Below are positions 19,086 to 45,603 of a DNA stretch of 45,865 nucleotides, one piece after another. The stretch comes from Escherichia phage mEp460_ev081. Position numbers and translations under genes: made by a program. The notes below the pieces were generated by a model. It was not told the origin of the DNA. It made no database searches and saw nothing but the letters and a program-made list of their open reading frames with translations. The stretch lies in sequence record LR597641; one strand, written 5' to 3'. Every line of letters starts with the position of its first letter. Position 1 is the first letter of the stretch.

Positions 19086-22000
19086 GTGAATATGGCAGTA
19101 AAGATTTCAGGTGTACTGAAAGACGGCACAGGAAAACCGGTACAGAACTGCACAATCCAGCTGAAAGCAAAACGTAACAGTACCACGGTGGTGGTGAACA
19201 CGCTGGCCTCAGAAAATCCGGATGAAGCCGGGCGTTACAGCATGGACGTTGAGTACGGGCAGTACAGCGTTATTCTGTTGGTGGAGGGATTCCCGCCGTC
19301 ACATGCCGGGACCATCACCGTGTATGAAGATTCCCGACCCGGTACGCTGAATGATTTTCTCGGTGCCATGACGGAGGATGATGCCCGTCCGGAGGCACTG
19401 CGCCGTTTTGAACTGATGGTGGAAGAGGTGGCGCGTAACGCGTCCGTGGTGGCACAGAACACGGCAGTCGCGAAGAAGTCAGCCGGCGATGCCGGCACAT
19501 CTGCCCGTGAGGCGGCAACCCATGCGACTGATGCTACAGGCTCAGCACGCGCAGCCAGCACGTCAGCCGGACAGGCCGCTTCGTCGGCTCAGTCAGCGTC
19601 TTCCAGCGCAGGAACGGCATCAACAAAGGCCACTGAAGCATCAAAAAGTGCTGCCGCTGCAGAGTCCTCAAAAAGCGCGGCAGCTACCAGTGCCAGTGCC
19701 GCGAAAACGTCAGAAACGAATGCGGCAGCGTCACAACAATCAGCAGCCACTTCTGCATCCACCGCGACCACGAAAGCGTCAGAAGCTGCCACCTCAGCCC
19801 GGGATGCGGCGGCTTCAAAAGAGGCGGCAAAATCATCAGAAACGAACGCATCCTCGAGCGCCAGTAGCGCAGCTTCCTCGGCAACAGCGGCAGGAAATTC
19901 CGCGAAGGCGGCAAAAACGTCCGAGACGAACGCCAGGTCTTCTGAGACGGCAGCGGGACAGAGCGCCTCAGCTGCGGCAGGCTCAAAAACAGCGGCTGCG
20001 TCGTCTGCCAGTGCCGCGTCAACAAGTGCCGGGCAGGCCTCAGCCAGTGCCATCGCCGCCGGAAAATCGGCAGAAAGCGCCGCATCATCCGCTTCAACAG
20101 CCACAACGAAGGCTGGCGAAGCCACTGAACAGGCCAGCGCAGCAGCGAGGTCAGCTTCCGCAGCGAAGACATCCGAAACGAACGCGAAAGCGTCGGAAAC
20201 CAGCGCAGAATCCTCAAAAACGGCTGCCGCATCGTCCGCCAGTTCGGCGGCGTCATCGGCCTCATCGGCGTCTGCTTCAAAAGATGAGGCGACCAGACAA
20301 GCGTCAGCAGCGAAGGGCAGCGCCACGACGGCATCCACGAAGGCAACAGAGGCTGCTGGCAGTGCGACGGCGGCAGCACAGAGCAAGAGTACGGCAGAAT
20401 CCGCAGCAACGCGCGCCGAGACAGCAGCAAAACGGGCAGAGGATATTGCATCCGCTGTGGCGCTTGAGGATGCGAGCACGACGAAAAAGGGGATAGTACA
20501 GCTCAGTAGTGCGACTAACAGCACTTCCGAGTCACTGGCGGCAACACCAAAAGCCGTTAAGGCCGCGTATGACCTGGCTAACGGGAAATACACCGCACAG
20601 GATGCAACGACAGCACAGAAAGGGATAATCCAGCTAAGCAGCGCGACCAACAGCACGTCTGAAACGCTTGCCGCGACACCAAAGGCAGTAAAAACAGCCT
20701 ATGACAATGCTGAGAAACGTCTGCAGAAAGATCAGAACGGTGCGGATATCCCTGGCAAAGACACCTTTACGAAAAATATTGGTGCCTGCCGTGCCTTTGG
20801 TGGGTCAGTAAGCACAATAACAGGAAACTGGACGACTGCACAGTTTATCGAGTGGCTGGATTCTCAGGGAGCATTTAACCATCCCTACTGGATGTGCAAG
20901 GGTTCCTGGTCTTATGGCAATAATAAAATCATTACTGATACTGACTGCGGTAATATTCATCTCGCCGGAGCTGTCATTGAAGTAATGGGGATAAAATCAG
21001 CGATGACGATCCGCATTACCACACCGACCACCTCCACTGGTGGTGGAACAACTAACGCCCAGTTTACCTATATTAATCACGGAACAGATTATTCACCTGG
21101 CTGGCGAAGGGACTATAACTCCAGAAATAAGCCAACGGCATCAGAGATCGGGGCGTTACCGTCAGGTGGAACAGCAGTATCATCAGTTAATCTGTCTTCA
21201 AAAGGTCGGGTAACCGCGCTGACAGACAATACGCAGGGGGCAACAGGTCTTGAGTTATACGAGGTGTATAACAACGGATATCCAACAGCGTATGGAAATA
21301 TCATTCACCTGAAAGGGATGACAGCCGTTGGCGAAGGTGAGTTACTCATCGGCTGGAGTGGTACAAGCGGTGCTCATGCTCCGGCATTTATTCGTTCACG
21401 ACGGGATACGACCGACGCAAACTGGTCGCCGTGGGCGCAGCTTTACACCTCGGCTCATCCTCCTGCAGAGTTTTATCCAGTCGGTGCACCAATCCCGTGG
21501 CCATCAGATACCGTTCCGTCTGGCTATGCCCTGATGCAGGGGCAGATTTTTGACAAATCTGCATACCCGAAACTTGCAGCGGCTTATCCGTCAGGCGTGA
21601 TCCCTGATATGCGTGGCTGGACGATTAAGGGCAAACCTACCAGTGGTCGGGCCGTATTGTCTCAGGAACAGGACGGCATTAAATCGCATACCCACAGCGC
21701 CAGCGCATCCAGTACGGATTTGGGGACGAAAACCACATCGTCGTTTGATTACGGCACTAAATCCACGAATAACACTGGTGCGCATACCCATAGTTTAAGT
21801 GGCAGCACGAATGCAGCTGGTAATCACAGCCATAGAGATGGCCGTCGATTTAACCCCAGTGTTTTTAAAGATACTTATCAATATGGTTATACAAGCTCAG
21901 GTCAAAATACCTGGGGTGTACAAGGCTCAGTAGGTATGTCTACGGGGTGGTTAGCTAATACCAGTACAGATGGTAATCATAGCCACTCACTGTCCGGCAC

Positions 22001-22163
22001 AGCAGCATCTGCAGGTGCACACGCGCATACTGTCGGTATTGGTGCTCATACGCACTCCGTTGCGATTGGTTCACATGGACACACCATCACCGTTAACGCT
22101 GCTGGTAACGCGGAAAACACCGTCAAAAACATCGCATTTAACTATATTGTGAGGCTTGCATAA
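19086..22163 (+). CDS. stf: Side tail fiber protein Stf
   Basis: N-terminus [26 protein letters not shown] matches lambda Stf (likely true start at the ATG at 19092); long Ala/Ser/Thr-rich repeat region; C-terminal His-rich GxHxH repeats and ending [11 protein letters not shown] as in lambda-type fibres. Confidence 0.9.
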
Positions 22164-22835: not shown

Positions 22836-23426
22836 TTATATGTCAGGTGTCTGAAGTTTTGCTTTGGCTCTTAAAATGGTTTGCCGCGAGGTTTTGAATT
22901 CCCGGGCAATGGCACTTATACTTACACCTGACTTAATTCGTTCGAATACCACCTGTTTCTGTTCTTCATTTAACACAGGTGGTCGACCAAAACGTTTCCC
23001 TGCGCCGCGGGCTCTTACTATCCCGGAATGAGTGCGTTCAAGTAAAAGGTCTCGTTCAAATTCAGCGACTGCTGAAATTACTTGCATCATCATTTTTCCT
23101 GTTGGACTGGTCAGGTCAATGCCACCCAATGCTAAGCAATGCACTCTGATACCTGTTTCGGTCAGTTGTTCCACTGTTTTCCTGATATCCATTGCATTAC
23201 AACCAAGGCGATCCAGTTTTGTCACAATCAATTGATCACCACATTTCAGGCGAGCAAGCAACCGGTTAAAACCTGGACGCTCACTGGTTGCTGCTGAGCC
23301 GCTAATGTGTTCTTCGATTATTTGCTGAGGTTTGATTTTAAAACCTGCACTTTCGATTTCCCGGCGTTGATTTTCGGTGGTCTGATCCAGCGTTGATATC
23401 CGACAGTAAGCAAAAATTCGAGACAT
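22836..23426 (-). CDS. Serine recombinase / DNA invertase (Pin/Gin/Hin family)
   Basis: 196 aa with N-terminal catalytic motif (YCRISTLDQ with presumptive catalytic Ser), resolvase/invertase core and C-terminal HTH; located directly downstream of tfa as pin genes are in e14/Rac/Qin. Confidence 0.85.
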
Positions 23427-33821: not shown

Positions 33822-35171
33822 TTATTCCGTTTTACATATCATAGTAGTCGATTGGAGAATATAGTTTCTGGGAATGTACTCTTCAAAGTGTTCGTCCTTT
33901 TTAAATACATGAACTACATTTGGGAATAATTGATAGTCAACAGGGTGTATAGCGTTTGGATTATGGTACATGTACATGGCTGTACACCATGGTTCTTGAT
34001 AGTTAGGGTCACTTACATCGGCTGAAAATGGATGTGGGGCTGCATCCTGATCAGTTTTAACACCACTGACGTACACTTTGAATCCACTCGCCTCTACACC
34101 TGCAAGAATTCCCATCCGGTTAAACTTAGGTATGGTTGCTTGAGTAGTGAGTAAAACGGCAGAAACATAATTATTTTGTTCTGAGCCAAAAAAGTTCGAC
34201 TTGATACTTCTATTTTCATCTGTATGTCTTTCAATAGAAATGCCTGACTCAATATCAATCCCGTACAAATAGCTATGCAAGGCTTCGCTTGAGAAGGCCA
34301 TGGACATTCTTTTTGAATAATCCTGCATTGCTATGACAAATGGTTTGTTCTTTGTATGGTTGAGTTCCCAGTAATGAACTTTCTCTGGCTCAGGGCAATG
34401 CCGGACTTTTTTTAATAAACTTCTTGCAAACTTAAAAGGCATGACATTTAGAACATGTTTTCTTAATTCATCCATCTGTTCATCGTTAATGACTTTTCTT
34501 TCAAGAGGGGCTTCTGCTTCAGCAATGCTTACAGCCTCTACAGCAATTTCCACTCCAAATTTAGATAGCAGAAAATCTGGTTGATTGTATTCTCTATTCA
34601 TTTCAAAGTCGAGTTCATAAAATACAGCGTTCAAATATAATTCAAATAACCTTGAATTAAATGCATCACTTTGAAAATCCCTTATAAATATTCCATCAGG
34701 ATCTTTGAACCAGTATGCAAGTTCCTCAAGAACAATATATGCAGGGAAATGAAGAGGGTCTTCGAGGAGCATTTTTATATAAACATTCCTTTTTTTCTCT
34801 GGGACTTTACTCAAGAATAATGAAAAAGGTTTGGATGATTCATCGCCTTGCATGAATGTACCATTTTGGTGCTGCGCCAGCATCTTTGGTATGTCATCGT
34901 TCAAATTATTAAGCAAGACATCCATTGAATCAAATGAAGCCAAGACGTTTATTGCTCTGAATTTTTTATCTAAATCCCGACCTAAGACTATTGCGTTAAA
35001 ATCTTTATCAATATTGCATATGATTATTGTGGATAACAATGTTATCCCATTCCCCTCATATTTAAACCAGCGTATCTCCTCAGAAAATGTCTTAAGGTAA
35101 GGTGAGCGACCGTAAAAATAAATATCAAATTGTTCTTTGCTGATCTCACTGAAGTGTAATCCTGCGTTCAT
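33822..35171 (-). CDS. Hypothetical protein, AT-rich orphan gene (candidate accessory/defence cargo)
   Basis: 449-aa uninterrupted ORF on the strand opposite its neighbours, in a markedly AT-rich segment; no P-loop, HEXXH, RT or other motif I can recognise. Confidence 0.7.
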   Translation of the reverse strand: MNAGLHFSEISKEQFDIYFYGRSPYLKTFSEEIRWFKYEGNGITLLSTIIICNIDKDFNAIVLGRDLDKKFRAINVLASFDSMDVLLNNLNDDIPKMLAQHQNGTFMQGDESSKPFSLFLSKVPEKKRNVYIKMLLEDPLHFPAYIVLEELAYWFKDPDGIFIRDFQSDAFNSRLFELYLNAVFYELDFEMNREYNQPDFLLSKFGVEIAVEAVSIAEAEAPLERKVINDEQMDELRKHVLNVMPFKFARSLLKKVRHCPEPEKVHYWELNHTKNKPFVIAMQDYSKRMSMAFSSEALHSYLYGIDIESGISIERHTDENRSIKSNFFGSEQNNYVSAVLLTTQATIPKFNRMGILAGVEASGFKVYVSGVKTDQDAAPHPFSADVSDPNYQEPWCTAMYMYHNPNAIHPVDYQLFPNVVHVFKKDEHFEEYIPRNYILQSTTMICKTE

Positions 35172-38317: not shown

Positions 38318-39139
38318 ATGAAACTGGAAGATTTACCGAAATACTACTCCCCAAAATCCCCTGGCCTGACCGATGCATCGGCCTCAACGTCAAAAGATGC
38401 GCTGAGTATCACTGATGTGATGGCCGCGCAGGGCATGACACAGAATCGGGCTGAGATGGGTTTTTCTGCGTTCCTGGGGAAAATGGGCATCAGTATGAAT
38501 GACAGGGCGCGGGCAACAGAATTACTGGCAGATTATGCACTCAGTCGGTGCGATCGTGTGGCGGCGTTGAGAAAACTTCCGGCAGAAATAAAACCGGTAG
38601 TGATGCGCATTATGGCTTCGTACGCTTTTGAGGATTATGCCCGCAGCGCAGCGAGTAAAAAGCAGTGCCCTTGTTGCTATGGGGAAAAATTTATTGAAAG
38701 CATAGTTTTTACAAACAAGGTCCAGTATCCGGATGGTAAGCCGCCGGTATGGGCAAAGTGTACGAAAGGTGTGTATCCGTCTTACTGGGAAGAATGGAAA
38801 AAAGTCAGGGAGGTGGTAAAAGTTGCCTGTCCGGAGTGTGGCGGAAAGGGTGAGGTTTCCACCGCCTGTAAGGATTGCCGTGGGCGTGGTGTCGCCATTC
38901 ATCGTGAAGAGTCGGTAAAACGTGGTATGCCTGTTGTCAGAGACTGCCAGCGTTGTGGTGGTCGTGGCTATGAAAGACTACCATCAACGGAGGCATTTAA
39001 TGCTATATGCGAGGTGACAAACCAGATAACACGCGCGTCATGGGAAAAAACAGTTAAGAAATTCTATGATGCGCTGGTGACCCGGTTTGATATTGAAGAA
39101 GCATGGGCTGAGCGGCAGTTAAAAAAGGTAACTAGGTAA
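38318..39139 (+). CDS. Late-gene antiterminator Q (QuuQ-like, zinc-binding)
   Basis: 273 aa with multiple CxxC pairs (CPCCYGEK, CPECGGKG, CKDCRGRG, CQRCGGRG); followed by a promoter and short terminated leader, then late genes. Confidence 0.75.
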   Translation: MKLEDLPKYYSPKSPGLTDASASTSKDALSITDVMAAQGMTQNRAEMGFSAFLGKMGISMNDRARATELLADYALSRCDRVAALRKLPAEIKPVVMRIMASYAFEDYARSAASKKQCPCCYGEKFIESIVFTNKVQYPDGKPPVWAKCTKGVYPSYWEEWKKVREVVKVACPECGGKGEVSTACKDCRGRGVAIHREESVKRGMPVVRDCQRCGGRGYERLPSTEAFNAICEVTNQITRASWEKTVKKFYDALVTRFDIEEAWAERQLKKVTR

Positions 39140-39144
39140 CAAGG

Positions 39145-39172
39145 TTGATTTTTCCGGAATCTGTGGTAAATT
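39145..39172 (+). promoter_or_regulatory. Putative late promoter pR'
   Basis: TTGATT, 16-nt spacer, TG-extended TAAATT -10 immediately downstream of Q. Confidence 0.5.
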
Positions 39173-39220
39173 CGTCATAATGATGGGCTTTTTATGCCTG
39201 ACGTTAGAAGAGTTTCTACA

Positions 39221-39246
39221 ACCCGCCGCCGAGCGGGTTTTTTATT
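39221..39246 (+). terminator. Putative tR' terminator of the short pR' leader
   Basis: cccgccgccgagcggg hairpin followed by ttttttatt about 50 nt downstream of the promoter. Confidence 0.55.
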
Positions 39247-39282
39247 GCGGAATTAATTACGGACCGTTATTATTCTGCTCCC

Positions 39283-39358
39283 GGCCCTTTAGCTCAGTGG
39301 TGAGAGCGAGCGACTCATAATCGCCAGGTCGCTGGTTCAAATCCAGCAAGGGCCACCA
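39283..39358 (+). tRNA. tRNA with CAU anticodon (Met, or Ile2 if lysidine-modified; ileZ-like)
   Basis: 76-nt cloverleaf: acceptor GGCCCTT/AAGGGCC, D-arm AGCTCAGTGG, anticodon loop CTCATAA, T-arm GGTTCAAATCC, 3' CCA. Confidence 0.85.
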
Positions 39359-39458
39359 TCACAAACCGCCATTAGCTTATCAGGAAGAGCAGACGACACG
39401 ATAACAGGGTTGTTGGTGCGGGGGCGGGTCCCCGATGGCGGTCCATTATCGGTATTCA

Positions 39459-39535
39459 GCGTTGTTAGCTCAGCCGGACAGAGCAATTGCCTTCTAAGCA
39501 ATCGGTCACTGGTTCGAATCCAGTACAGCGCGCCA
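39459..39535 (+). tRNA. tRNA-Arg (UCU anticodon; argN/argO-like)
   Basis: 77-nt cloverleaf: acceptor GCGTTGT/ACAGCGC, anticodon loop CTTCTAA, T-arm GGTTCGAATCC, 3' CCA. Confidence 0.85.
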
Positions 39536-39645
39536 TATTCATTCTTCCAGATTCCTTCCGGCAGAGCCTTATACTGGAATATACCTGGCTCAGGATATTG
39601 TTGAAAACATAATATGTTTGTCAAAAATAAAAGTTCTGTTAAGTA

Positions 39646-39999
39646 TTGATTGAGTGTTTGTTATACGGTCTAATGGTTTTTTCAGCATTAAATATTTATC
39701 ATTCATATGGTGTGGGTAGAGTGAATATTGATGAGGCGTCGGGGTGTTTCATCCTTAGGCAGCGTATTGATATAGTCAATGCAGCACGAGCAAAGGCCTT
39801 CAGCCGTTTGACAGTTTTGTTCTGTGCTCCTGATCGTCTTTCGGGAAGAGACGTTATTATTCTGAATAGTGATGCTATACAGAGGGTTTGCGATGAGTTC
39901 ATGGTTGCTAATTCAGAATTATTTGCTCTTGTTCAGGAGTACAACAGAATAGCCAGGACCTGTGGTATGGATGAACTTCGGATTACTCATCTGGGGTAG
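39646..39999 (+). CDS. Hypothetical protein (uncertain start)
   Basis: 117-aa ORF (non-ATG first codon) after the tRNAs in the cargo position before lysis genes; no motifs recognised. Confidence 0.35.
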   Translation: MIECLLYGLMVFSALNIYHSYGVGRVNIDEASGCFILRQRIDIVNAARAKAFSRLTVLFCAPDRLSGRDVIILNSDAIQRVCDEFMVANSELFALVQEYNRIARTCGMDELRITHLG

Positions 40000-40473
40000 A
40001 TACATATCTGGATTATCACCTGTTACGGTAAAAAGTGATTGCTTACTGTTTTTGTGAATGGCATTGCAGCAGCCGGATAATGTCAGTGCTGGCTGACGGT
40101 GTGCTGGTGGCGGGTGTGGTGGTTGTTGCTTTCCCGTTGCTGAAAAAGAAAACGCCAGACTGTTAGCCGGGTATCAGTTAGCGGGAGAAATTTTTAAATA
40201 CTTCACAATTCAGGCGGTTGACTGTTCTCTGGTTTGCGGGGAGTTTGTTAAAAGAAACTGGCATGGTGAATCCCCCTGTGCGGAGGGGCAATCAGCGAGT
40301 AGGTATATGGGATAATCGCGGATTCAGGTGCTGGTACTGAATTCACCGGGAGGCACCCGGCACCATGCACTTCAATAGATTCTCTCCACATTATGGATAT
40401 TCTTTCAGAATATCCCACGCAGACTTTGTGTAAATGTTAACAAATGTGCGTTTTATTTGATCTGATTCGCTGT

Positions 40474-40503
40474 TTGAGCGTCCAAAACAACGGTATATAT
40501 AAT
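40474..40503 (+). promoter_or_regulatory. Putative promoter of the lipoprotein moron
   Basis: TTGAGC, about 18-nt spacer, TATAAT, about 30 nt upstream of the lipoprotein start. Confidence 0.45.
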
Positions 40504-40532
40504 CCTTTACTATATGACATATGTGAGGAAAA

Positions 40533-40961
40533 ATGGGTTTTCGTAGCGCATCAATTCTTACGTTGATTATTAGTGGGATTATTATCGGGTGCACTGATGC
40601 TGTATCGACAAATTATCATGACCGTACATCATATTACTCCGATAAAGCAATAGAGACACAGTATGTGAGTTCATCTGAACGTACTTCTGATGTTAGTGAG
40701 GATATCCGTCTGTATGCCCATCAAATCAAGAGCGCCATCGAAAAACAGTTCGGGGATGCGAGTAAGTATTCAGGAAAAGAGTGTACACTGAGAATGCATA
40801 TGGCCCCGAATGGCCTTCTACTGGAGGTTAAAAGAGAAAGTGGAGACCTCGATTTATGTCGTGAAGCGATGAATGCGATAAAGAATGCTGATATACCTGC
40901 CCCCCCTTCGCCGGAAGTATATAAAGTATTTCAAAATGGGGTGCTGGATTTTAAACCCTGA
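40533..40961 (+). CDS. Lipoprotein with TolA C-terminal (domain III)-like domain
   Basis: 142 aa; signal peptide with lipobox IIGC; C-terminal approx. 80 aa (YAHQIKSAIEKQFGDASKYSGKECTLRMHMAPNGLLLEVKRESGDLDLCREAMNAIKNADIPAPPSPEVYKVFQNGVLDFKP) closely resemble the C-terminus of E. coli TolA as I recall it. Confidence 0.75.
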   Translation: MGFRSASILTLIISGIIIGCTDAVSTNYHDRTSYYSDKAIETQYVSSSERTSDVSEDIRLYAHQIKSAIEKQFGDASKYSGKECTLRMHMAPNGLLLEVKRESGDLDLCREAMNAIKNADIPAPPSPEVYKVFQNGVLDFKP

Positions 40962-41111
40962 TATTTATTGTTTTGTAATAAACGGTTTCGGCTTAGGTTT
41001 GTTCTGACACAACTACGGCACTGAGCTAAATTTAGCGGATAGTCAGCTCTGAGCCAGTGGCGGACGTAACAACTACTATTGCTGAGATTTTAATGGATTG
41101 AGGAGCAAGAA

Positions 41112-41507
41112 GTGGGATTAAAGAAAATCGTTATGTTGACTTTTTGGGTCGGTTTTGTTGCGGGATGCACACCTTTACACCCTTCAGATTGCCACAAAAC
41201 TACTGCTACAGGTAGTTGCAGTTCAGGACGCTGGGATGATCAGGATGAATGGGGGGCGCAAGCGCGGGGAATCAGAGCTGCAATTAATGCCAAACTTGAT
41301 GAGCCGCATAACTGGAAAGGGAAAAAATGCAGGTTGCATATGGAATTCTCTCAGGATGGCACGGCGTTAAAAATATCTACCAGTAACGGTGATAAAGCCT
41401 ATTGCGAAGCGATAAAGTCCGCAGCTCATAAAGCCAAATTTCCGGCCTTCAACAATCCGGAAGTCTACAGAGATTTTCAGAAATCTGGCTTTGACATGCG
41501 AGGTTAG
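41112..41507 (+). CDS. Lipoprotein with TolA C-terminal-like domain (paralog of 40533-40961)
   Basis: 131 aa; lipobox VAGC; C-terminal KGKKCRLHMEFSQDGTALKISTSNGDKAYCEAIKSAAHKAKFPAFNNPEVYRDFQKSGFD shares the same pattern as the upstream paralog and TolA domain III. Confidence 0.75.
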   Translation: MGLKKIVMLTFWVGFVAGCTPLHPSDCHKTTATGSCSSGRWDDQDEWGAQARGIRAAINAKLDEPHNWKGKKCRLHMEFSQDGTALKISTSNGDKAYCEAIKSAAHKAKFPAFNNPEVYRDFQKSGFDMRG

Positions 41508-41630
41508 CTCTTCAATTACTATATCTCATTCATAGCAAACTGACAGATTTGATGATGTTCTATATACGAAACCTGTGATGTCAAGTCTGAGCTAATACAA
41601 ATAAACATAATATCAGAGAAATACATTTTA

Positions 41631-41656
41631 TTAGCTCGCTACGGCGAGCTTTTTAT
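41631..41656 (+). terminator. Rho-independent terminator after the lipoprotein pair
   Basis: agctcgctacggcgagct hairpin followed by ttttat. Confidence 0.5.
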
Positions 41657-41758
41657 ATTGCATCGTCTCCAGCATATATATCAATTAAGGCTCTGATTGA
41701 TGTGTCTGGAAGCCTACACATAATAACTATGCCATCCGTTCCGTGCGGAGGTGAGGCT

Positions 41759-41974
41759 ATGAAATCCATGGACAAAATTTCAACAGGCATTGCCTACGGC
41801 ACCTCCGCAGGCAGTGCTGGCTACTGGTTTTTACAGCTGCTCGATAAAGTCACGCCCTCACAGTGGGCAGCAATAGGTGTGCTGGGTAGCCTGGTATTTG
41901 GCCTGCTGACGTACCTGACAAATCTTTATTTCAAGATTAAAGAAGACAGGCGTAAGGCTGCGAGAGGAGAGTAA
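41759..41974 (+). CDS. Holin, phage 21 S21 pinholin type
   Basis: 71 aa [26 protein letters not shown]...[13 protein letters not shown]...[17 protein letters not shown]; dual-start MKSM motif; two TM segments. Confidence 0.9.
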
Positions 41975-41978
41975 TCCA

Positions 41979-42286
41979 ATGACTCAATACTATGAACTGG
42001 TTGTGAAAGGAGTCCGTAATTTTGAGAATAAAGTTACGGTAACTGTAGCCTTACAGGACAAAGAACGCTTTGACGGTGAAATTTTTGGCCTGGATGTCGC
42101 CATGGACCGTGTTGAAGGAGCTGCGCTGGAGTTTTATGAGGCAGCAGCCAGAATGAGCGTCCGGCAAGTCTTCCTGGAAGTAGCAGAAAAATTGTCAGAA
42201 AAAGTTGAGTCTTATCTGCAGCATCAGTACTCCTTTAAGATTGAAAATCCTGCCAATAAGCACGAGCGTCCTCATCATAAATATCT

Positions 42287-42290
<4 letters not shown>
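41979..42290 (+). CDS. YdfR-like protein (DUF1327), inserted between holin and endolysin
   Basis: 103-aa ORF in the same position as ydfR in Qin (between essQ and rrrQ). Confidence 0.65.
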
Positions 42291-43314
<1,024 letters not shown>

Positions 43315-43677
43315 ATTAATATTAAATCGGATTATTTTTAGCGCTGAATGTGAAATTTAAATAAAAAGGACTCTTCCATGAGTCAAAATCCTTGAAATCT
43401 TAAGGGTAAGATAAAAGGTCATTAGACAGAATGACACGTTTTATTAATAAATAAAGCTATTGTTTCATTCGTGTGTTTTTCTTTACAAAAGTAATCCTTG
43501 CTATGGTTGGTTAATCATGCGTTAATGGTGTTCTGGTTTGTTACAAAATTATCTGAAGCAGTCATTGTTATAATTTTATTATTTGTACCTCTTGAGATTT
43601 CCTTGTTGGTTTTTCTCTCTGATATTTTTTTTCGGACCATTCTGCCCAAGGGCTAACTTCTTCAAAAGGTAATAATG

Positions 43678-43890
43678 ATGTCTAACAAAATGACTGGTTT
43701 AGTGAAATGGTTTAACCCTGAAAAAGGTTTTGGTTTCATCACGCCGAAAGATGGTAGCAAAGATGTGTTTGTGCATTTCTCAGCTATTCAGAGCAACGAT
43801 TTCAAAACGTTAACTGAGAATCAGGAAGTCGAATTTGGTATTGAGAACGGACCTAAAGGCCCTGCAGCTGTTCATGTAGTGGCACTTTGA
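43678..43890 (+). CDS. Cold-shock protein (CspA family; CspI/CspB-like)
   Basis: 70 aa with RNP motifs (KGFGFI, VFVHF); long AT-rich 5' UTR typical of csp genes. Confidence 0.9.
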
Positions 43891-44093
43891 GGTAGAAAAT
43901 ATTACAAACCATATTCACTTTAGATGCCCGTGTTGCCATGGTTCTCAGTATAGAACATCATCTTTTGATGTTTCTGACAGAAATCCTTTCGGGGCAAAAT
44001 GTATCTTTTGTAAATCAATGATGATTACATTTGATAATATTTCACAATACTTAAATGTTAGCCATCTGTCGTTAGATTTAAGAAAGTGAAAAT

Positions 44094-44118
44094 GAAGGCT
44101 CCTTCGGGAGCTTTTTTG
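44094..44118 (+). terminator. Rho-independent terminator after csp
   Basis: gaaggctccttcgggagc hairpin followed by ttttttg. Confidence 0.55.
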
Positions 44119-44161
44119 CTTAGTGTCTAGTCGATGGATACTCACATATTACGGTAACATT

Positions 44162-44392
44162 ATGAAAAAAATAATAGTTTTTTTTAACTCTGAACCAGCA
44201 ATGGTAGTGCCAGTGATGACCGGAGTTAACACCATCATGCGTGAATATCCAAATGGCGAAACAACACACCTCACTGTAATGGCTGCAGGGTTTCCATCTC
44301 TGACCGGAGATCATAAAGTCATTTATGTAGCAGCGGATCGACATGTAACTTCAGAAGAAATTCTGGAAGCAGCAATGAGACTCTTGAATTGA
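44162..44392 (+). CDS. Hypothetical protein (YnfN-like position)
   Basis: 76-aa ORF from MKKIIVFFN... between the csp and gns-like genes, as in the Qin cspI-ynfN-gnsB cluster. Confidence 0.45.
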   Translation: MKKIIVFFNSEPAMVVPVMTGVNTIMREYPNGETTHLTVMAAGFPSLTGDHKVIYVAADRHVTSEEILEAAMRLLN

Positions 44393-44564
44393 TTTGATTC
44401 TAATGCATTGATAATAAATGATAATCATCTTTATCTGTTTGTGTGAAATTTAGACCGTCGTATGTTGATTATTGCGATGTTTCATCTTATCTTTTATACG
44501 TTTGCTCCATATAATTGACACTACTGTGTACCAGGACAGTCATAACAGACTAAAAGAGGAAATG

Positions 44565-44738
44565 ATGAACATTGAAGAGTTAAAAACAAAAACAGAAGCA
44601 GATATTTCTGAATATATAACAAAAAAAATCATTGAGCTTAAGAAAAAGACCGGGAAAGAAGTTACCAGTATCCAGTTTACTGCACGGGAAAAAATGACTG
44701 GTCTTGAAAGCTATGATATCAAGATTGATTTAATCTAG
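44565..44738 (+). CDS. GnsA/GnsB-family protein
   Basis: 57 aa MNIEELKTKTEADISEYITKKIIELKKKTGKEVTSIQFTAREKMTGLESYDIKIDLI, resembling GnsB as recalled; RBS agagga. Confidence 0.7.
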   Translation: MNIEELKTKTEADISEYITKKIIELKKKTGKEVTSIQFTAREKMTGLESYDIKIDLI

Positions 44739-45033
44739 CATGTTTATAGTATTAGCATCAATTTCTCATCAGATGCTATTCAACAATACAAATTACCCAT
44801 AAACCTCGTTTTTACGGGGTTTTGTTATATTTAAACATTACTGAATAGATATAAATCTCGATTGTCGATGGTATTGGTTGTGTGACAATACCTAGTCTTT
44901 CCGGTATGCCTGAAGAGAATACAAACGACAGATTATGTAAGGGAAACGCGCTGAAACTTTCACTCTTTCATGCTGAGTGATTTGACGTTATATTTTTAGC
45001 CGCAAGTGAAGAGCAAACGAATGGAGCGACAAA

Positions 45034-45240
45034 ATGCATAAAGATCAATACACTGATGCCCCCTCCCAGGAGCAGGTTCGTGTAAAAACTATGCTTAATA
45101 GCACCATTTCGATGGGTTACCCGGATGTTGTAATTGCATGTATAGAACATCAAGTATCTCTGGAAGCATTCAGGGCAATTGAGGCCGCGTTAGTAAAGCA
45201 CGATAAGAATACGAAGGATTATTCCCTGGTGGTTGACTGA
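45034..45240 (+). CDS. Hypothetical protein
   Basis: 68-aa ORF with RBS (ggagcgacaaaATG) between the gns-like gene and cos. Confidence 0.45.
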
Positions 45241-45603
45241 TCACCATAACTGCTAACCATTCTGACCATTTCACAAGTGACAGAGTCAATATCGTATTCT
45301 GTCACTGTAAGGCTAATACAGTACTGCAATTCAACTACAGCAATGCCTCGTATTTAGGTGAATTTACAATATCGTCCAGTTCGGATGCCGGCTGCATTTC
45401 TGAAGATAAGGCATTTCGGTTCGCGTATTTTCCCCTCATGCTCGTCAGTCCTGCGCGTAGTAAGAAACAGGACACTCACACTAATTTGTGTGGGCATGCT
45501 GTGATGTCCTTCTGAATTATCCCCATGCCATTATGTAACGCTCTGTTTCAGATGCTCGTCACGGTTGTCAGGCTGTCGGGTCCTCCCAGTGGGGGTCCCT
45601 GCC

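Follow-up and report, generated by a model that had tools for sequence, protein, structure and literature searches.

Two tandem lipoproteins carrying TolA domain III in a lambdoid phage: candidate periplasmic co-receptor decoys

The genome of Escherichia phage mEp460_ev081 (LR597641), analysed here as a single window of 45,865 nucleotides (nt), carries between its antiterminator and its holin a cassette of two tandem genes, open reading frames A and B (ORF-A and ORF-B), each of which encodes a lipoprotein precursor ending in a copy of domain III of TolA (TolAIII, the TolA tip), the part of this host protein through which many colicins and filamentous phages gain entry. Neither product contains the other two domains of TolA, and relatives of similar build are found on prophages, plasmids and chromosomes of several bacterial genera. 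The function tentatively favoured here, at somewhat less than an even chance, is that of a co-receptor decoy that would make its host tolerant to Tol-dependent bacteriocins and filamentous phages. Positions given below are those of the window, and features lie on the + strand unless otherwise stated.

Two lipoproteins built on TolA domain III

The C-terminal domains of both proteins are recognized as TolAIII by sequence and by structure. The Pfam profile PF06519 (TolA_C; a 96-position model with a cut-off of 25) matches ORF-A with 82.6 bits (E = 2e-23, model positions 4-96) and ORF-B with 54.6 bits (E = 1e-14, model positions 10-92), and phmmer comparison with the TolA chains of the PDB gives E values of ~1e-27 and ~5e-9, respectively. 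Residues 55-142 of ORF-A (40695-40958) align without a gap to residues 334-421 of Escherichia coli TolA, with 52 of 88 positions identical (59%) and the same LDFKP end; the domain of ORF-B (residues 44-131, 41241-41504) is identical to E. coli TolAIII at 27 of 88 positions. AlphaFold2 models the linkers as disordered and the domains with high confidence (predicted local distance difference test scores above 90 for ORF-A 50-142 and of 85-97 for ORF-B 41-131). The top Foldseek match in the PDB is TolAIII for each model, namely 2x9a_B for ORF-A (root-mean-square deviation 0.6 Å, template modeling score 0.96) and 3qdp for ORF-B (1.0 Å, 0.92), and the C-terminal domains of TonB rank far below E. 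coli TolAIII for both. The cysteines aligned with the TolA disulfide C363-C388 are kept in ORF-A and ORF-B, which fits a periplasmic location. A previous sequence-only reading of this DNA had noted a resemblance of the two C-termini to TolA and proposed a profile search and a structural superposition to check it; both identify TolA domain III.

In their fold, disulfide and exposed β3 edge the two domains are thus like domain III of E. coli TolA (residues 325-421; 1TOL, 1S62, 3QDP/3QDR, 2X9A). Unlike TolA, neither protein has the transmembrane domain I or the helical domain II, or coupling to TolQR or the proton motive force; both are predicted to be lipid-anchored, probably in the outer rather than the inner membrane, and both are encoded by a mobile element outside the tol-pal operon. 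The complete TolA architecture of membrane anchor, helical domain II and domain III is accordingly absent. The full-length equivalog NF007065 scores only 107.8 (ORF-A) and 53.7 (ORF-B) against its cut-off of 213, matching model positions 293-386 of 387 alone, and TIGR02794 is passed by ORF-A (75.6 against 59.45) through its C-terminal part only. Since domains I and II are absent and the full-length equivalog fails, ORF-A and ORF-B are TolA-tip proteins, not TolA. Their genes are found between the phage Q/tRNA genes and the holin gene, and not in a tolQRA-tolB-pal operon.

The annotation of these genes in public databases obscures this distinction. In the RefSeq sequence NZ_CP023815.1, which is identical to the window (locus L001, 6402-6662 and 6834-7208), the Prokaryotic Genome Annotation Pipeline (PGAP) labels ORF-A a 'tolA' pseudogene missing its N-terminus; in other genomes the protein of 142 amino acids (aa) is labelled plain 'TolA', and it is flagged as an incomplete tolA in many. 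The labels 'tolA' and 'tolA pseudogene' are misleading artefacts of naming by a full-length model. ORF-B corresponds to WP_001348108.1, named in RefSeq as a 'cell envelope integrity TolA C-terminal domain-containing protein', and both proteins are full-length members of PHROG 5772 (E = 1e-62 for ORF-A and 7e-65 for ORF-B); this family and the RefSeq product name are annotation bins, of 'unknown function'.

The remainder of each protein is that of a lipoprotein precursor, as the sequence-only reading had recognized from the two tandem lipoboxes, IIGC and VAGC. ORF-A (40533-40961; 142 aa) comprises a signal peptide (MGFRSASILTLIISGIIIG-C20), a Ser/Thr-rich, disordered linker (residues 21-54) and TolAIII; ORF-B (41112-41507; 131 aa) begins at a GTG codon and comprises a signal peptide (MGLKKIVMLTFWVGFVAG-C19), a Cys loop and TolAIII. 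Each signal peptide has a basic n-region and a hydrophobic core and closes with a lipobox that conforms to the pattern [LVI][ASTVI][GAS]C, IIG-C20 in ORF-A (Cys codon 40590-40592) and VAG-C19 in ORF-B (Cys codon 41166-41168), each followed by Thr at position +2. The Gly-Cys of the lipobox is invariant in 22 aligned relatives, though the signal region itself diverges (nonsynonymous divergence, dN, of 0.6). From these features it is predicted that both proteins are lipidated and, with Thr rather than Asp at +2, sorted to the outer membrane by the Lol system.

Both genes are preceded by a Shine-Dalgarno sequence, GAGGA at 40525-40529 for ORF-A and GAGGAG at 41100-41105 for ORF-B, the latter six bases 5' of GTG 41112. 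This GTG is a better start for ORF-B than the ATG at 41133 chosen by RefSeq/PGAP, because the former has both the upstream GAGGAG and the charged n-region that is common to homologues and the latter has neither; the internal ATG annotated in NZ_CP023815.1 removes the charged n-region from the signal peptide.

Between lipobox and domain, ORF-B bears a conserved N-terminal Cys loop, PLHPSDCHKTTATGSC. Across the B subfamily it takes the form C-x-PLHPSxCHKTTATGSC-SSGRWDDQDEW (residues 19-43, 41166-41240), with two extra Cys kept across genera, and although the AlphaFold2 model is of low confidence here, the ratio of nonsynonymous to synonymous divergence (dN/dS) of this motif is only 0.02-0.1. A likeness of the B-family motif SSGRWDDQDEWG to colicin TolB boxes was set aside, as its spacing is different.

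Two surfaces through which TolAIII meets its partners have been defined. TolB, colicin N (ColN) and the N1 domain of the filamentous phage protein g3p (g3p-N1) all dock by β-strand addition onto the β3 strand (A415-K420), and a proline at D418 or K420 abolishes all three interactions (PMC4339652; PMC7391070). The dissociation constant of TolAIII is ~1 µM for ColN and ~40 µM for TolB (PMC4339652). Colicin A uses the opposite edge of the domain, formed by L375-P380 with K368, K379 and K396 (PMC3365938). The β3 strand of ORF-A, L-D-F-K-P, is identical to L417-D418-F419-K420-P421 of TolA, and its colicin A site is partly kept (LLEVKR, K379 and K396, with K368 replaced by His). ORF-B reads F-D-M-R-G, in which the Asp and the β-forming residues are kept, and a related lipoprotein of Klebsiella IncF plasmids reads L-D-F-R-L; the colicin A site is lost from both. 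The β3 edge is thus the constant feature across the A, B and Klebsiella plasmid subfamilies.

Relatives on prophages, plasmids and chromosomes

ORF-A and ORF-B belong to a far wider class. A profile search of 1.84 billion representatives of 50%-identity clusters (hits counted at E ≤ 1e-3) returns 577 matches. The best 150 of them include 63 short proteins (<190 aa) in which TolAIII comes after an N-terminal lipobox, and 51 that are long and TolA-like. A C-terminus of the form [LIMVF]-D-[FLIVM]-[KRQ] is kept in 31 of the 63 short lipoprotein representatives.

The cassette itself is present in 776 of 5426 complete E. coli genomes (~14%, or one in seven), mostly at ≥99% identity, and in at least 35 contigs of IMG/VR, always directly 5' of an S21-type holin gene on backbones that differ, for example in carrying unrelated endolysins. 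A tblastn search of deposited phage genomes with both proteins gave no match; occurrences of the family are confined to prophages, IMG/VR contigs, plasmids and chromosomes. A-type genes of 65-68% identity stand alone in Stx-like (Shiga toxin phage-like) prophages at the exact position of stxAB, in the order Q or QuuD, an optional methyltransferase, tRNA-Ile, tRNA-Arg, the A-type gene, nanS-p, DUF826 and holin. The sequence-only reading had proposed a check of synteny in related prophages; the genes are located there in the stx slot or before the S21-type holin.

B-type genes have travelled more widely. At ~87% DNA identity they lie directly 3' of the relaxase gene nikB on IncK2/Z and other I-complex-type conjugative plasmids (with MPF_I/MOBP or trbABC neighbours) and, on pO157, beside a nikB remnant, and such plasmid places number ~550 in E. 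coli. Chromosomal copies, with 79-89% protein identity, are single genes at unrelated sites in Citrobacter, Enterobacter, Klebsiella, Raoultella and Serratia, the neighbours in Serratia being GmrSD and HEPN genes.

Further subfamilies are borne by plasmids of Klebsiella. Altogether 717 plasmids in PLSDB encode a TolA-tip protein, 650 of them from Klebsiella, and the conjugative IncFIB/FII plasmids of this genus carry a TolA-tip lipoprotein of 144 aa with lipobox ITAC and C-terminus LDFRL. On one of these, NZ_CP024040.1 (locus L014, 4217-5246), a gene for a thioredoxin-fold protein precedes the lipoprotein gene, and this neighbour may be a dedicated helper for the Cys-Cys bond of the domain. 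On cloacin-type ColRNAI plasmids (~10 kb), the colicin-E3-like immunity and lysis genes are adjoined by a two-gene operon, whose products are a Sec-exported C-terminal domain of TonB and a TolA-tip lipoprotein with lipobox LTAC and the C-terminus FKNAPLDFRP; in Klebsiella NZ_CP033403.1 (locus L103, 8137-8870, - strand) the two genes overlap. 'TolA and TolB family proteins' on a cloacin plasmid have been named in passing, without comment (PMC10269471). A second case of small TolA-tip and TonB-tip proteins close together is seen on a Raoultella terrigena chromosome, where a lipoprotein of 111 aa (lipobox LAVC; locus L101, 8140-8475) with a weak TonB_C match is encoded two genes 3' of a B-type gene.

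Both cassette proteins are maintained by selection, to different degrees. Compared with the plasmid, Citrobacter, Enterobacter and Serratia copies, B shows a dN/dS of 0.07-0.12 at a synonymous divergence (dS) of 0.5-1.1, and is under strong purifying selection despite this high synonymous divergence. Compared with its 65-68% relatives, A has a dN/dS of 0.3-0.4 over the whole protein and of 0.23-0.37 over TolAIII, and is under moderate constraint.

The two genes also differ in origin. The sequence-only reading described them as paralogous, which holds in a broad sense only, for they are 29% identical and belong to two subfamilies with separate histories: the closest relatives of A are enterobacterial TolA proteins (55-59%), and B falls in a separate clade of short lipoproteins that are at most 39% identical to any long TolA. 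This low identity and the placement of nearest relatives in different groups rule out a tandem duplication, and the sequences point instead to separate captures, with the tandem pair arising by juxtaposition of two lineages.

The cassette in its phage

The window is a complete lambdoid phage genome, circularly permuted, in which terminase and tail genes are followed by integrase, early genes, RusA, Q, the TolA-tip cassette and the lysis genes. The sequence-only reading had placed the cassette between Q/tRNA genes and holin, and the coordinates agree. The antiterminator Q (38318-39139; Pfam Antiterm PF03589, E = 1e-54) is followed by two tRNA genes (39283-39358 and 39459-39535) with a CAT anticodon and Arg-TCT, as in Stx-type phages, and 3' of the cassette are the lysis genes (41702-43314), identified with Pfam as a P21-type holin (41702-41974), DUF1327, lysozyme and Rz (DUF2514). 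The first tRNA is called Met (anticodon CAT) by ARAGORN, and the identical gene is annotated in RefSeq as tRNA-Ile, presumably lysidine-modified.

Deposited lambdoid and Stx phages are homologous to the window up to 40369 and again from ~41721, which delimits an insert of extra DNA (40370-41720) between genes conserved in related phages. The 70 bases just before it (40300-40369) are identical to a stretch immediately 3' of stx1B in Stx1 phages (Shigella phages 75/02 and 7888, and phage Nil3), a junction that marks the left recombination boundary of the cassette. Its base composition is also unlike that of neighbouring genes, with a guanine-plus-cytosine (GC) content of 39-46% against ~49-53% in Q, RusA and lysozyme. 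In location, candidate promoter-plus-terminator layout and lower GC, the cassette is like the morons and conversion genes (stx, bor, lom) that lambdoid phages carry at the Q-S junction, and the A-only relatives share the very slot of stx, Q-tRNAs-[gene]-nanS-p-holin; the TolA-tip cassette differs from these morons in its cargo.

A promoter and terminator belonging to the cassette had also been proposed, and there are candidates for both. An intrinsic-terminator-like hairpin with a T tract lies at 41633-41660 (hairpin 41633-41650, 7 bp with 5 GC pairs, followed by TTTTTATATT), folds at -13 kcal/mol (z = -3.7) and closes the cassette ~40 nt (41661-41701) before the listed start of the holin ORF at 41702. 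The promoter candidate, a sigma-70-like TTGAGC-18-TATAAT at 40474-40503, ~30 nt 5' of the start of ORF-A, matches the consensus at 10 of 12 positions and is the joint best match in a scan of 39000-42400, in which 11 promoter-like sites are observed against 6.9 ± 2.6 expected by chance, a modest enrichment. A cassette promoter is plausible as a consensus match. No alignment is obtained between the upstream regions of the two A subfamilies, and the candidate is not kept in the A-only one. For B, the prophage and plasmid copies are homologous only from ~41082 onwards, 30 nt 5' of the start codon, and no claim of a conserved promoter is possible on these grounds. The spacer between the genes (40962-41111), which contains the Shine-Dalgarno sequence of ORF-B, shows no predicted terminator (fold z = -0.4), and ORF-A and ORF-B are for that reason likely co-transcribed. 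During lytic growth, Q-modified polymerase from the late promoter would read through the cassette.

Several other features of the phage deserve mention. An ORF of 117 aa at 39646-39999, considered as a partner gene, has no match in Pfam or PADLOC, is unannotated in the identical RefSeq sequence, and was discarded. In the early region, a protein of 448 aa (33822-35168, - strand) without a Pfam match is matched over its full length by the PADLOC defence protein PD-T7-1 (E = 4.9e-157), and the prophage thus carries a known defence gene as well. A Pin/Hin-type serine invertase (22836-23426, - strand) adjoins a tail-fibre gene of 1025 aa (19086-22163), which suggests an invertible host-range segment. 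Finally, a block of 30-38% GC 3' of the lysis genes (43300-45300), with a cold-shock protein gene (43675-43890) and small ORFs that RefSeq lists as ynfN and gnsB-like, seems to be a second accessory region, similar to that of the Qin prophage.

Possible functions of a tethered TolA tip

The most likely function of these proteins, put forward as a tentative proposal, is that of a co-receptor decoy, because an isolated tip can only bind the partners of TolA and the β3 docking edge is retained. As proposed, the cassette is a mobile insert among the late genes of a lambdoid prophage, and its two exported lipoproteins would be lipidated at Cys20 (A) and Cys19 (B) and then delivered to the outer membrane, from whose inner leaflet each would hang a disulfide-bonded copy of TolAIII on a flexible linker. 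Without domains I and II, such a protein could not couple to the TolQR motor and could only bind the partners of the TolA tip. On the inner side of this membrane, where g3p and translocation domains come through first, the tethered tips would trap both kinds of ligand, the former from pilus-specific filamentous phages and the latter from Tol-dependent bacteriocins, ahead of their contact with energised TolA, leaving the lysogen or plasmid host tolerant. The affinities of ~1 µM for ColN and ~40 µM for TolB imply that invaders would outcompete TolB on the decoy. Periplasmic g3p-N1 is known to sequester TolA, which renders cells tolerant to colicin A and lowers phage uptake by 4 logs (PMC10424213), and this shows that the TolA-tip interaction can be titrated in vivo. 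Ff superinfection immunity through g3p or periplasmic g3p-N1 is alike in that contact between TolA tip and invader is blocked by an excess of one partner (PMC10424213); the blocker there is a phage ligand acting on TolA or an artificial construct, whereas here a natural gene would supply a copy of the receptor.

The company kept by the relatives, namely pilus plasmids, cloacin plasmids with a TonB tip, and GmrSD and HEPN genes, makes a decoy more plausible, and the proposal also fits the conversion-gene (stx) slot of prophages and the presence of PD-T7-1 in the same prophage. Laboratory titration with periplasmic TolAIII was reportedly described by Levengood-Freyermuth et al. in 1993. Cor of phages phi80, N15 and HK022 and Llp of T5 are small phage-encoded outer-membrane lipoproteins that exclude superinfection by inactivating FhuA. 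The TolA-tip proteins resemble these as small phage-encoded envelope lipoproteins, and differ in having no relation to them in sequence or fold and in that they would mimic a periplasmic co-receptor.

A number of observations weigh against a decoy. A β3 decoy for g3p or ColN should also bind the N-terminus of TolB and could thereby harm Tol-Pal function. ORF-B has lost the residues of the colicin A site, the strongly conserved Cys loop at its N-terminus is not accounted for by a pure decoy model, and several chromosomal B copies stand among ordinary metabolic genes, without mobile-element or defence neighbours. The defence models of PADLOC give no match to ORF-A or ORF-B. Expression, moreover, may be mainly late and Q-dependent, as the promoter is a mere consensus match that is not kept between A subfamilies, and this would be a poorer fit to protection of a lysogen.

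The main rival, less likely than the decoy but with several observations in its favour, is that the proteins are modulators of Tol-Pal. Here, the ligand of the tethered tips at the outer membrane would be the TolB N-terminus, and the cycling of TolB with Pal would be dampened or rerouted, with a mild tol-like state, more vesicles and a leakier or more readily disrupted outer membrane as consequences, which would aid the release of phage or cargo while the late operon is expressed, and chromosomal copies would tune the envelope. The TolB-binding β3 edge is the most conserved functional surface in the A, B and Klebsiella plasmid proteins, with a β3-type C-terminus in 31 of the 63 short lipoproteins, and a review has noted that changed TolB interactions could regulate vesicle production (PMC7391070). 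The phage copies lie in a Q-dependent late transcript just 5' of the lysis genes or nanS-p, and the B copies of Enterobacter, Klebsiella and Raoultella occupy ordinary chromosomal neighbourhoods. The affinity of TolA for TolB is weak (~40 µM), though, and the phage already has a complete set of holin, endolysin and spanin, while the plasmid and chromosomal copies are unlinked to lysis. A constitutive tol phenotype would also carry a cost, which sits poorly with a cassette fixed and identical in ~14% of complete E. coli genomes. The narrower suggestion of the sequence-only reading, that the cassette might modulate Tol-Pal during lysis, is weakened since both subfamilies also occur away from lysis genes; an accessory role in lysis was down-weighted, as A-type and B-type genes can each stand alone with no lysis gene beside them.

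A narrower form of the decoy, in which bacteriocins play no part, is the protection of conjugative plasmids: the tips would shield pilus-bearing donors from pilus-specific filamentous phages, for which TolA is a necessary co-receptor, and the prophage copies would be secondary. The position of B directly 3' of the relaxase in I-complex (MPF_I) plasmids and the third subfamily on Klebsiella IncF (MPF_F) plasmids agree with it, and the top structural match of the ORF-A model is the solved complex of TolA with the g3p of phage If1 (2x9a). Such a restricted role is nonetheless improbable, given that the cloacin plasmids are mobilizable and not pilus-encoding, that their TonB C-terminal partner points to bacteriocins, and that most prophage and chromosomal carriers need not have pili. 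Least probable by far are decaying, non-functional tolA remnants left by illegitimate recombination, for which the PGAP flag of incomplete tolA on ORF-A in many genomes might speak; this is effectively refuted by the selection and conservation data, in that both ORFs are intact and each is equipped with a ribosome-binding site, signal peptide and lipobox of its own, the Gly-Cys pair stays invariant amid a diverging signal region, dN/dS is well below 1, and the 577 profile matches include, among the best 150, 63 short lipobox-bearing proteins.

The fold and the annotation bin of these proteins are already known, and the architecture is without a described function in the literature searched. 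No functional study of TolA-tip lipoproteins was found in open-access and bioRxiv literature, a search that leaves most subscription journals outside, so that absence is no proof; the statement of the sequence-only reading that no phage system of this kind is known to have been characterised agrees with this search, with the genes themselves already held in RefSeq and PHROG 5772. With slightly less confidence than the decoy itself, it is possible that lipid-anchored or secreted tips of the two energy transducers of the envelope, TolA domain III and the TonB C-terminal domain, represent a widespread, unrecognised class of mobile-element immunity genes, acting as periplasmic co-receptor decoys against Tol- and Ton-dependent bacteriocins and pilus-specific filamentous phages. 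They would catch these invaders once past the outer membrane but not yet in contact with the energised machinery, and the tandem A and B genes would be two decoys of different ligand ranges.

Mimicry of a co-receptor, encoded by mobile elements, would add a new form of exclusion at the envelope, in which the principle of defence is a periplasmic copy of the co-receptor and not the loss or masking of a surface receptor. If true, it would help explain the tolerance of natural E. coli to colicins and filamentous phages. The relatives reside on hundreds of plasmids, including pO157 and the resistance and cloacin plasmids of Klebsiella, and a decoy function would bear on bacteriocin- and phage-based therapeutics and on how conjugative plasmids offset the cost of pilus exposure. 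As natural competitors of the TolA-TolB contact, these proteins would also bear on the biology of the Tol-Pal system itself.

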